Below, one piece after another: positions 1 to 9,382 of a stretch of DNA of 39,760 nucleotides; the first letter of the stretch is position 1, and each line of letters opens with the position of its first letter. Origin of the DNA: a virus. Lineage: Duplodnaviria > Heunggongvirae > Uroviricota > Caudoviricetes. The DNA lies in the IMG/VR virus record IMGVR_UViG_2711768002_000014; one strand, written 5' to 3'. Both the position numbers and the translations under genes were made by a program. Under the pieces are notes generated by a model. The model worked only from the letters and a program-made list of their open reading frames with translations. It did no database searches and was not told the origin of the DNA.

Positions 1-573
1 ATGTTTTGCGAAGAAAAAGTAGCTCAAATGGCTGCATACCTACTTCTTAAGCGAGGTGGGCGCATGGCATATCTGAAATTGATGAAGCTGCTCTATCTGT
101 CTAACCGCAAGTCGATTTTGAAGCATGGCAGGATGATCGGCGAAGATAGCCTTTACTCTATGAAATTTGGTCCAGTCATGTCGAATACGCTGAACTTGAT
201 TCGTGGTAAGGCTGAAGGTATTGGTGACTACTGGTACAACCTGATAGAGACGAACGGGCATGATGTGTTGTTGCGTTCAGATCCGAGGGAAATGGATGCA
301 GACGAGGTCTTTGATGAGTTGAGCCGTGCAGATATCCGGATTTTAGATGAAATCTATTCTCTGTATGGGCATATGAACCGATTTGATCTCGCAAACATGA
401 CGCATTTAGAAAGCGTTTGTCCAGAGTGGCACAATCCTGGCAATTCTCGTAAGCCTATAGACCTGAAAGAAATGCTGATCAGTGAGGGTAAAAGCGAGGA
501 TGAGGCTAATCGTATAATTGGCAAAATGGAAGAATCTCAGAAACTTAAGGAATTTTCTTTGCAATTATCATGA
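1..573 (+). CDS. Panacea-domain (DUF4065, GepA/SocA-like) phage-associated protein; putative antitoxin
   Basis: 190-aa ORF starting at window base 1; motifs AAYLLLKRGG, YLKLMKLLYL and FGPV resemble remembered DUF4065 signatures; stop overlaps the next ORF start (ATGA at 570-573). Confidence 0.5.
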   Translation: MFCEEKVAQMAAYLLLKRGGRMAYLKLMKLLYLSNRKSILKHGRMIGEDSLYSMKFGPVMSNTLNLIRGKAEGIGDYWYNLIETNGHDVLLRSDPREMDADEVFDELSRADIRILDEIYSLYGHMNRFDLANMTHLESVCPEWHNPGNSRKPIDLKEMLISEGKSEDEANRIIGKMEESQKLKEFSLQLS

Positions 574-989
574 CGGATTATCAGCCATACAGGAAAGGAA
601 CTGTGCTTGCCCCAACTGGGCCATGCAATCATCTTCATGTGATTTGTAATGATCCTGTTTATTACCCCGTTAACGATTGTTATTGTGTTTTAGTTGTTAA
701 TATTTCTAGTATCAAGGATGGTGTCCCCCACGATCCGTCTTGCGTCTTGAATTCTGGTGATCATCGCTTTATCAAGCATCCAAGTTATGTTGTTTACGCT
801 GAAGCTATAATTTGGCGAGTGGATAACATGGTTAGAAAGCAGCGATCGGGTGAGATTTCCGTTCATGATGATATGCCAGAAGCTACATTCAATAGAATTC
901 TGGACGGTTTTGATATATCTGATGAAGTTACGCCAAAGAACCTTAAATTTAAAAATAAATATTGCGTATCATCTATTGATGATGAGTAA
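570..989 (+). CDS. hypothetical protein translationally coupled to the Panacea protein; candidate toxin/effector partner
   Basis: 139-aa ORF whose ATG overlaps the upstream stop; no recognisable domain; Cys/His-containing soluble protein, no TM segment. Confidence 0.4.
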   Translation: MTDYQPYRKGTVLAPTGPCNHLHVICNDPVYYPVNDCYCVLVVNISSIKDGVPHDPSCVLNSGDHRFIKHPSYVVYAEAIIWRVDNMVRKQRSGEISVHDDMPEATFNRILDGFDISDEVTPKNLKFKNKYCVSSIDDE

Positions 990-1028
990 ACAACAGGAAT
1001 TGTTTCGGTATAGCTTCTGGAGTTTTCT

Positions 1029-1202
1029 ATGGAAGATCAAAAAGCAACCAAGCCACAGGTTAAGTTCGACACAATGAAAGCATTCGCAGGTATGGGTGCT
1101 GCTGTTGAAGTTCTGATGAAGGCTGCTCCTAATGCGTTCACTCACGCTACTGTCTCTGGTAAAGAGCAGCAGGGTAAGCTTCGTCGTCGCAAAGCAGCAT
1201 GA
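1029..1202 (+). CDS. small hypothetical protein (57 aa)
   Basis: Below the ORF-track cutoff; GGAG about 8 nt upstream of ATG 1029; codons of highly-expressed E. coli type (ggt, gct, cgt, aaa); followed directly by a terminator. Confidence 0.3.
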   Translation: MEDQKATKPQVKFDTMKAFAGMGAAVEVLMKAAPNAFTHATVSGKEQQGKLRRRKAA

Positions 1203-1221
1203 TCATAGCTGGTGCTTTTTG

Positions 1222-1247
1222 AAAACCCGCCTTTAGGCGGGTTTTTT
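1222..1247. terminator. bidirectional rho-independent terminator
   Basis: aaaacccgcc-ttta-ggcgggtttttt: GC stem with A-run upstream and T-run downstream, between convergent plus and minus genes. Confidence 0.6.
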
Positions 1248-1249
1248 CT

Positions 1250-1531
1250 TTAGTGATGTTCTTTGCCCTTCTGTTTGCCTGTTCTGACCTGTTCCCACTC
1301 GATACGTCCTTCTTCTCGTCTTTTGTCTATGTATTCCGCAAGATCCTGAATATTGATGCAACGTTTTGCTTTTTGTGATGTACCGATGCGATATGTAGGT
1401 ACAGGCAACTTACAAGCGTTTGCTTTTGCTTCTGCTGTGGCTGGACTCATACCAAAGTATTTTTGACTAACTGCTGAGAGTTCAATGTTTGGGGTATTGA
1501 ATTCAGCCATCAGTAAAAACAAGGTATTCAT
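1250..1531 (-). CDS. PrtN-family / excisionase-like winged-helix DNA-binding protein
   Basis: 93-aa ORF; resembles remembered PrtN/Xis-like small proteins (YFGMSPATAEAKA...LPVPTYRIG); last gene of the leftward operon. Confidence 0.45.
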   Translation of the reverse strand: MNTLFLLMAEFNTPNIELSAVSQKYFGMSPATAEAKANACKLPVPTYRIGTSQKAKRCINIQDLAEYIDKRREEGRIEWEQVRTGKQKGKEHH

Positions 1532-1567: not shown

Positions 1568-2362
1568 TTACTTATTCATTTCAATAATATTATTTTCTAT
1601 CATTGATTTATTTAAAACCAAAGAAGGAGCAAGATGGTTGTCTATTTTAAACAATGCATAACTTTTAAACTGTTGGTGATATCCGTAACTAATAAGGATG
1701 CTAGAAAAATCTCTTAATTCATCTTCTTTTAAAAAATTAAAATGAAATGGGTTGTCACCATTTATGAACAATGAAACATCTATTATGCAGTATTTCTCTC
1801 CGTTGTCATTTGCATAGAAAAAAATATAAGACATTCTGTTTGTTAAGACAATGCCATTAAATTTTCTTATGTCTGTAGCTATTTTGTTTTCCATGTTTGG
1901 TGCTACATATTTATTTTCAGAAATACATTTAATTTCATCTCCAGATGTCGTGATTATATAAAAATGAAACTTATCAGAAATATCTAACTTAACTACGCCA
2001 TCATTATTGTAAAGGCTGCTAAATTTTGGTGGTTCAACTTTTAAAGAATCATAGTTCTTTAAAAGAAGAGGGGAGTCAAATTTAATAACTTGTAGTATCC
2101 CTTTACCTTCAACCTCCATATTGATTGAAGATATAGCAATTGCATTATCTCTTTTATTATTCAGGATTATGGTTGATATATGCATGTCATATATTCTACT
2201 TGCATTTGCTGAATACGACACTGTCACCTTTTTTGATATTTTTTGCACGCCAAAATATATAGTGAAGGCAGCGGCAAGAATAGATAAGAATTTAATGTCA
2301 AATAAGGACCATAGCCACATTAGTTGCTCAATTGCTTCAGAGTTAATCATTTGCTTTACCAT
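1568..2362 (-). CDS. hypothetical membrane-anchored protein, AT-rich accessory gene
   Basis: Long ORF in a strongly AT-rich stretch (about 1560-2500); N-terminal hydrophobic segment WLWSLFDIKFLSILAAAFTIYFGV; start uncertain (ATGs at 2401, 2362, 2350). Confidence 0.5.
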   Translation of the reverse strand: MVKQMINSEAIEQLMWLWSLFDIKFLSILAAAFTIYFGVQKISKKVTVSYSANASRIYDMHISTIILNNKRDNAIAISSINMEVEGKGILQVIKFDSPLLLKNYDSLKVEPPKFSSLYNNDGVVKLDISDKFHFYIITTSGDEIKCISENKYVAPNMENKIATDIRKFNGIVLTNRMSYIFFYANDNGEKYCIIDVSLFINGDNPFHFNFLKEDELRDFSSILISYGYHQQFKSYALFKIDNHLAPSLVLNKSMIENNIIEMNK

Positions 2363-2538
2363 TATCGCTGTAATACAACACATGTGTGTATATATACGCA
2401 ATGCAATTATTTTGCAAGTGCTTCATTTACTATCAATAGCTACGTCACGTTATTGTTTAATGGTTCTTTATAGGGGCGGCAATAGTTAAAATTATCGCTT
2501 CCGTAAATGCCCCCGCAGGGGCATTTGCAGTAATGAAA

Positions 2539-9059: not shown

Positions 9060-9382
9060 CGACGTTAACTCAATGCCAGCAGCAGGTGCTGGATATGCTG
9101 ATTTCTTACCAGAAAGAACGTGGCTTCCCGCCAACCAATCAGGAGGTGGCAACCATGCTGGGATACCGTTCAGTGAATGCAGCGGTGGAACATCTTCGCG
9201 CACTGGAGAAAAAAGGCGTCATCACGATAAAGCGTGGCATGGCCCGGGGTATCACTCTTCATACCGCGGTGAAGGACGACGACAGCGAGGCGGTCGGGAT
9301 TATCCGCTCACTGCTTGCCGGTGAGGAAAACGCCAGGCTGCGTGCAACCCACTGGTTACATGAGAGAGGCCTGAAAGTATGA
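9056..9382 (+). CDS. LexA DNA-binding-domain-only protein
   Basis: N-terminus QQQVLDMLISYQKERGFPPTNQEVATMLGYRSVNAAVEHLRALEKKGVITI parallels the LexA N-terminal wHTH; only 108 aa, no S24 peptidase domain. Confidence 0.65.
   Translation: MTTLTQCQQQVLDMLISYQKERGFPPTNQEVATMLGYRSVNAAVEHLRALEKKGVITIKRGMARGITLHTAVKDDDSEAVGIIRSLLAGEENARLRATHWLHERGLKV

Follow-up and report, generated by a model that had tools for sequence, protein, structure and literature searches.

The first two genes of a 39,760-nucleotide stretch of viral DNA (IMG/VR record IMGVR_UViG_2711768002_000014; Caudoviricetes), the whole of which is referred to below as the window, were analysed. These genes, ORF1 and ORF2, are here termed panA and panT. 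They probably form a type II toxin-antitoxin (TA) pair that belongs to the PanAT class and travels as exchangeable cargo of a lambdoid Escherichia coli prophage, in which it is placed between the attachment site in dusA and the excisionase gene (xis). A PanA-PanT-like cargo module had been proposed for this position in a preliminary description made from the sequence alone, and the proposal was borne out by a Panacea domain in the first product, a strictly conserved two-gene architecture, and 42-43% identity to an experimentally validated pair. The domain identity of PanA, the gene architecture and its conservation, the fold of PanT and the homology to the validated pair were established here. 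The coordinates of all features are compiled in Table 1.

The assignment of ORF1 to the Panacea (DUF4065) proteins, which had been suspected before, was checked by a hidden Markov model search. ORF1 matched Pfam family PF13274 (SocA_Panacea) over residues 27-137 with an E-value of 1.8e-18 and a score of 67.9 bits, the gathering cut-off being 25.7. The RefSeq protein identical to ORF1 (WP_000458583.1) is named 'Panacea domain-containing protein'. The domain is followed by a C-terminal extension of approximately 50 residues, and a DNA-binding domain at the N-terminus is lacking. This agrees with the class 'noNTD' that is given to T6 PanAs in the table entries considered from Kurata et al. (2022; PMC8832971). 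Direct neutralisation by stand-alone Panacea domains has been shown, and a role as sensor has been proposed for Panacea (Ernits et al., 2023). A single-sequence AlphaFold model of PanA reached a pLDDT of only 42 and was too poor to be used.

The identity of the partner was deduced by comparison with the catalogue of Kurata et al. (2022; PNAS, PMC8832971), in which 88 putative toxin clusters were described beside Panacea proteins and ten pairs were validated. The T6 entries considered from Dataset S1 of that study include Pantoea septica LMG 5345 (order A|T, spacing -4), the Yersiniaceae bacterium 2016Iso4 (spacing -1), Proteus vulgaris, Pluralibacter gergoviae, Photorhabdus, Halomonas and others. 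Two of the loci collected here agree with this list both in genome and in spacing. Locus L012 is that of P. septica LMG 5345, where the ORF2 homolog (identical to protein P0035) shares 56% identity with ORF2 and has a 4-nt overlap with panA, and locus L011 is that of strain 2016-Iso4, where the overlap is 1 nt and the product has 131 aa. A validated pair, that of Pseudomonas moraviensis BS3668, is likewise listed under T6 in these entries, where it is marked 'NotPhage'. A search starting from the homolog of a Pseudomonas phage led to a 90%-identity cluster containing a 132-aa protein of P. moraviensis (SDU72800.1, locus tag SAMN04490196_4922, on a contig of 6.09 Mb), with which ORF2 shares 43% identity over 120 aa (E-value 6e-34). 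The representative of this cluster is a PanT of Pseudomonas sp. B10 with more than 90% identity to the P. moraviensis protein, and a Panacea gene stands alongside it. The PanA of strain B10 is 42% identical to ORF1 (E-value 5e-47) and contains IFSEQKVAQMAAY, with the N-terminal IFSEQKVAQ of the P. moraviensis PanA, whose N-terminus was restored as MIFSEQKVAQ by Kurata et al. (PMC8832971). ORF1 begins with MFCEEKVAQMAAY. The P. moraviensis PanT was reported to be toxic in E. coli, to be rescued by PanA and to co-purify with it; it selectively inhibits the incorporation of 35S-methionine (Fig. 3 therein) and is similar to the EndoA/PemK/MazF RNases by HHpred (PMC8832971).

On the basis of these sequence comparisons, ORF2 is assigned to the catalogued toxin cluster T6, which has a validated member. 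The earlier suggestion that it might be an undescribed toxin thus had to be dropped, since Kurata et al. had catalogued this cluster, predicted it to be of MazF-like type and validated it by way of the P. moraviensis member. By the same comparisons, the pair agrees with the PanAT class in every property that can be examined in silico, namely a Panacea domain, a conserved, co-oriented and tightly spaced gene pair across unrelated genomes, and a partner in a catalogued PanT cluster, and it is classed as an ortholog-level relative of the validated pair.

The preliminary description could not place ORF2 in any family. This was confirmed as far as sequence matches in Pfam, NCBIfam, PADLOC and the PDB are concerned, none of which was found; matches to ICMT, DapC, IgG and MS2 coat protein in these searches were at chance level and were discarded. 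A match was obtained to PHROG 19071 (function unknown; E-value 3.4e-31). In RefSeq, the gene is modelled from a GTG at position 603 and yields a 'hypothetical' protein of 128 aa (WP_014640052.1). The N-terminal sequence MTxYxPYRKGT and the ATGA overlap with panA are kept among homologs, and the codon corresponding to the GTG is GTT, GTA or ATA in other homologs. The RefSeq start was rejected on these grounds, and the ATG at position 570, giving 139 aa, is probably the correct one. Comparison with homologs from Kosakonia and Pluralibacter revealed synonymous divergence of approximately 0.8 differences per site, which is saturated, and a dN of approximately 0.09 for both panA and panT. Because synonymous sites are saturated while dN is this low, both genes are considered to be real and under strong purifying selection.

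For an analysis of the spread of the pair, loci were taken from phage records, species-representative genomes and assemblies, and 37 of these, the window included, contained enough upstream sequence. A PanA homolog was located directly upstream of the ORF2 homolog and on the same strand in all 37. PanA was of full length (176-191 aa) in 34, and the pair was degraded in the remaining three, so that PanAT pairs can decay in chromosomes. The distance between the two genes in intact copies ranged from -4 to about +27 nt and was mostly between -4 and +2 nt. Protein searches with ORF2 yielded 62 clusters from the single sequence and 308 from a profile. An exhaustive profile search recovered 2,706 representatives at 50% identity with an E-value of 1e-3 or lower, 941 of them at 1e-10 or lower. 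Phage carriers of the pair were lambdoid E. coli phages, Yersinia phage YeP1, the P2-like Pseudomonas phage Sirocco and a Helicobacter prophage, in addition to a non-tailed Vinavirales element of Vibrio. Chromosomal carriers belonged to the alpha-, beta- and gammaproteobacteria (Enterobacterales, Methylococcales, Sutterella, Sphingomonadales, Rhizobiales and Rhodobacterales). The genes flanking the pair varied from locus to locus, and a search of plasmids gave no match.

Annotation of T6 partners in public records deserves a remark. The Sirocco record shows a small ORF on the opposite strand where the PanT gene stands. Several T6 partners from Pasteurellaceae carry the RefSeq label 'terminase' in the entries considered from Dataset S1 of Kurata et al.; the label is probably a mis-annotation derived from adjacent phage packaging genes. 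The pair does stand just upstream of the terminase genes in the Helicobacter prophage.

The position of the pair was compared among prophages and free phages. Bases 1-1,300 of the window recur with 100% identity in many E. coli chromosomes and are completely present in 205 of 5,426 complete genomes (approximately 4%); phages SKA5 and Lys8385Vzw have the same bases at 98% identity. In E. coli AR_0085, panA and panT are the first genes within a prophage integrated in dusA. Approximately 250 bp separate the end of the dusA 5' remnant from the downstream start codon of panA, and the host genes zur and yjbM-like lie beyond the remnant. The free phage SKA5 has the gene order int, dusA-like attP fragment, panA, ORF2, ORF3 and xis. 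The pair had been described as lying at the int-proximal end of the prophage. This is correct for the circular phage map, as seen in SKA5, but in the lysogen int is situated at the opposite end; it lies outside the window, which continues into tail-fibre genes. Phage mEp460 possesses the same int, ORF3 and xis as found here and has no PanAT, its slot between int/attP and ORF3-xis being occupied by an unrelated gene. Because mEp460 keeps int, ORF3 and xis but has exchanged the pair for this gene, ORF1 and ORF2 are interpreted as exchangeable cargo, and the slot as a hot spot of moron exchange in dusA-integrating lambdoid phages. ORF3 was also considered as a part of the PanAT module and rejected, since it travels with xis in mEp460 without PanAT. 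It is probably a phage backbone gene that shares the rightward transcript.

The three genes panA, panT and ORF3 point rightward, and the excisionase and the early-left genes point leftward. This opposed orientation and a terminator shared by both units had been noted before and were confirmed. The terminator reads GAAAACCCGCC-TTTA-GGCGGGTTTTT (positions 9221-9246 of locus L001), and the terminator scan indicated a stem of 11 bp with 6 GC pairs, followed by a T-tail. Because it comes after ORF3, the rightward transcription unit probably consists of three genes and not of two. The first base of the window is also the first base of the panA ATG; the ribosome-binding site, GAGG at 8 nt 5' of this ATG, was read in the identical locus of E. 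coli AR_0085. The overlap of the panA stop codon with the panT start codon, which had likewise been pointed out before, permits translational coupling of panT to panA.

The structure of ORF2 was predicted with AlphaFold2 from 30 homologs (mean pLDDT 93, pTM 0.86). The model contains a beta-barrel with strands at residues 11-16, 19-25, 37-47 and 72-83, a helix at 84-93, and extra C-terminal helices at 104-116 and 122-131. The MazF/Kid-like barrel comprises residues 10-100, approximately. In a Foldseek search against the PDB, the top 48 matches were all MazF/Kid chains, with a probability of 1.0, a TM-score of 0.50 (query) and 0.64 (target), and 9-18% identity; the best matches in BFVD were phage 'PemK-like' proteins. 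MazF/Kid chains ranked above CcdB in two fold searches. According to the model, ORF2 has the SH3-like barrel fold of the MazF/CcdB type. Since searches with sequences and profiles did not detect a relationship, the link to MazF is drawn from this fold.

Candidate residues of an active site were selected from an alignment of 138 diverse representatives. His21, Leu22, Asp55, Cys58, Gly63, His65, Phe67, Ser72, Tyr76, Gly113 and Ser117 are invariant or nearly so. Each of His21, Asp55, Cys58, His65, Ser72 and Tyr76 is kept in 130-136 of the representatives (His21 in 134), and a Ser or Thr is conserved at 46-47, with Ser/Thr47 in 136 at the end of strand 3. ORF2 has kept all of these residues. A conserved catalytic Arg (R29 in E. 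coli) and Thr (T52) are required in MazF enzymes. Going by strand order and by an alignment of low confidence, His21 and Ser47, which are located near the beginning of strand 2 and the end of strand 3, respectively, may take the positions of MazF Arg29 and Thr52. Asp55, Cys58 and His65 are located in a long loop after strand 3 and could complete the catalytic centre or bind a metal. The composition of the invariant residues as a whole, with no Arg among them, is unlike that of canonical MazF and suggests a different catalytic or metal-binding centre.

The following mode of action is proposed for the pair. A single rightward mRNA comprising panA, panT and ORF3 would start at a promoter within the 250 bp that separate panA from the dusA remnant, and would end at the intrinsic hairpin. 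Translation of panT would be coupled to that of panA by way of the ATGA, so that the antitoxin would be made first and probably in excess. PanA, with its stand-alone Panacea domain and C-terminal extension, would keep PanT inactive by direct binding. Free PanT would arrest growth by shutting down protein synthesis, most probably by cleavage of RNA, with a putative active site formed by His21, Ser/Thr46-47, Asp55, Cys58, His65, Ser72 and Tyr76 instead of the Arg/Thr pair of MazF. In a lysogen, the pair would most likely serve either in defence against superinfection (abortive infection) once PanA is titrated, degraded or triggered, or as a stabilising addiction element. That the E. coli copy acts like its 43%-identical homolog is inferred, and so are its biological role, its chemistry as an RNase and the residues involved in catalysis.

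As to this role, the pattern of swappable phage cargo favours defence against superinfection. Addiction is equally open, given the chromosomal copies in Pseudomonas and the lack of a PADLOC model and of a published phage test: no family of PADLOC-DB v2.0.0 matched ORF1, ORF2 or ORF3 at an E-value of 1 or lower, and no published phage-defence test of the T6 family was found in a literature search. In its strict form, addiction would mean that PanAT is purely selfish, making it costly to lose the prophage or the cargo slot but leaving incoming phages unaffected. We consider this strict form possible but less probable. It would be in line with classic type II TA behaviour, with the position of the module at the extreme edge of the prophage beside the attachment site, with the missing PADLOC match, with the degraded copies, and with the chromosomal T6 pairs, which in loci of the Pseudomonas sp. 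B10/P. atacamensis type stand between housekeeping genes and in P. moraviensis are marked 'NotPhage'. Against it, at least five unrelated phage backbones carry the pair as cargo, and the slot in mEp460 holds a different gene; such recurrence and swapping are typical of superinfection-defence morons, although they are compatible with addiction.

The reading of the pair as a TA module with an RNA-cleaving toxin has to be weighed against several observations. Its expression from the region upstream of panA received no backing from a promoter scan, which detected no signal above chance there; sigma-70-like sites were no commoner than in shuffled sequence, and the one such site on the plus strand scored 9/12. 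The link to the validated toxin also depends on the P. moraviensis protein found here (P0188) being WP_083201923.1, which is taken to be the case from organism, BioSample locus tag, size and neighbourhood and not from a match of accession numbers. With regard to the enzymatic activity, no match of ORF2 to PemK was obtained in Pfam at an E-value of 1 or lower, and the profile of the ORF2 family gave no match to MazF or any other relevant protein among the PDB sequences. Alignment of the family by hhalign with E. coli MazF and with a small three-sequence MazF alignment resulted in probabilities of 0.1-0.2%; the MazF sequences had been checked against PDB entries, but this alignment is a thin template, with which the HHpred match of Kurata et al. 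was not reproduced. No Arg or Lys is invariant among the 138 representatives, leaving the catalytic Arg of MazF without an invariant counterpart, and a metal site, either structural or catalytic, could be the actual purpose of the invariant His/Asp/Cys/His set.

An alternative is a toxin of another kind, be it a CcdB-like gyrase poison, a protein with some other target than RNA, or a new chemistry exerted on the barrel by the His/Asp/Cys/His set. This is regarded as rather unlikely. MazF and Kid outrank CcdB in the two fold searches, and a hydroxyl residue is kept at Ser/Thr46-47 at the end of strand 3, where we presume, by strand order, the catalytic Thr of MazF to be located. Furthermore, the validated homolog specifically inhibits translation and not DNA synthesis (Fig. 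3 in Kurata et al.; PMC8832971). A related and similarly doubtful idea is that the T6 PanT represents not a MazF-type RNase but a new translation-blocking enzyme on a MazF barrel, with His21, Asp55, Cys58 and His65 as a metal or Cys-His centre, and that the stand-alone Panacea protein of prophages like the present one is the phage sensor of an abortive infection system missed by the current catalogues. It is very unlikely, finally, that ORF2 is non-toxic in E. coli and that the pair has a non-TA function, e.g., with the Panacea protein as the chaperone of a factor for phage regulation or counter-defence: 8 of 25 predicted PanTs were indeed non-toxic in E. coli, among them two of cluster T1, one from an E. 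coli prophage and one from a Salmonella phage (PMC8832971), and Ernits et al. propose Panacea as a possible sensor and not only as a neutraliser, but the tested family member with 43% identity was toxic in E. coli and neutralised by its PanA, all family-invariant residues are intact in ORF2, and the genes are under purifying selection.

Table 1. Features of the panAT locus in the window and of related loci in other records
Feature	Record	Position	Strand	Description
panA (ORF1)	Window	1-573	+	190-aa putative antitoxin; stand-alone Panacea (DUF4065) domain and C-terminal extension
panT (ORF2)	Window	570-989	+	139-aa predicted toxin, Kurata cluster T6
ATGA start/stop overlap	Window	570-573	+	ATG 570-572 of ORF2 over TGA 571-573 of ORF1
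ORF3	Window	1029-1202	+	57 aa; PHROG 2741 (function unknown), E-value 8.4e-36
Intrinsic terminator hairpin	Window	1221-1246		A-run before, T-run after; common to the panAT-ORF3 and xis units
xis, PrtN-type excisionase gene	Window	1250-1531	-	Pfam PF11112, E-value 3e-23; PHROG 'excisionase'
Occupant of the slot in mEp460	L039	2284-2817		Gene gp23, 177-aa hypothetical protein, unrelated to PanAT, between int/attP and ORF3-xis
PanA-PanT (T6)	L005, Vibrio phage 10N.239.311.H11_PE001	139-958		Non-tailed Vinavirales element
PanA-PanT (T6)	L003, Pseudomonas phage Sirocco	929-1881	+	Pair unannotated in the record
Degraded copies	L020; L031; L034	3747-4327; 3570-4315; 3420-4273		Truncated PanA (85 or 116 aa) or 43-aa PanT fragment

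A further ORF of 277 aa (positions 1568-2401, minus strand) was observed. It is situated in markedly AT-rich DNA, with a GC content of 28-31% in surroundings of approximately 45%, and its sole match was PHROG 14996 (function unknown), with no match in Pfam or PADLOC. In the otherwise identical prophage of E. coli AR_0085, an exonuclease gene and a DUF551 gene are found in its place. The region looks like a second variable cargo slot, which possibly holds an accessory or defence gene.

With the present assignment, a probable function is available for a gene pair that occurs in approximately 4% of the complete E. coli genomes and is labelled in RefSeq only at the level of the domain or as 'hypothetical'. 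The T6 toxins, which are validated but unnamed, emerge as a large family of approximately 2,700 representatives that is spread as phage cargo across the Proteobacteria and into Helicobacter. New in this respect are the size of a family for which no Pfam model exists and the RefSeq start of the E. coli gene, which appears to be wrong; the conserved His/Asp/Cys/His set is, as far as found, not discussed in the literature.

Among the known systems, the pair is most similar to the T6 PanAT of P. moraviensis LMG 24280/BS3668. In both, the antitoxin gene comes first and the genes overlap or abut; PanA is a stand-alone protein of approximately 185-190 aa with a related N-terminus (MFCEEKVAQMAAY here, IFSEQKVAQMAAY there; 42% identity), and PanT is a protein of approximately 132-139 aa with the same invariant residues and 43% identity. 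The P. moraviensis pair is chromosomal and marked 'NotPhage', whereas the E. coli pair is carried by a prophage at the attachment site in dusA, and both termini of ORF2 are slightly longer. The MazF/Kid/PemK endoribonucleases of the CcdB/MazF superfamily differ in several respects. ORF2 shares approximately 8-17% identity with them in structural alignments and shows no similarity at the profile level and no PemK match in Pfam, its short loop between beta1 and beta2 is different, and it has two extra C-terminal helices. Its family has an invariant His/Asp/Cys/His set and no invariant Arg, and the antitoxin is a Panacea protein and not MazE or Kis. The Pfam domain of the antitoxin, SocA_Panacea, is shared with SocAB of Caulobacter crescentus, a type VI TA system of which SocA is the founding Panacea protein. 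Identity with SocAB was rejected on account of the NCBIfam equivalog model of SocA (NF047745), which scored 13.5 bits against a cut-off of 190, and of the partner, which belongs to T6 and not to T10/SocB. SocA moreover serves as an adaptor of ClpXP, whereas neutralisation by the PanAs that Kurata et al. tested needs neither ClpXP nor Lon (PMC8832971). Other Panacea pairs of Enterobacteriaceae are those of E. coli STEC O31 (T3) and of E. coli MOD1 and Salmonella phage Emek (T1), the T1 pairs being phage-borne like the present one. They belong to other toxin clusters: the T3 toxin is a small membrane-depolarising peptide, and the T1 candidates were non-toxic in E. coli.

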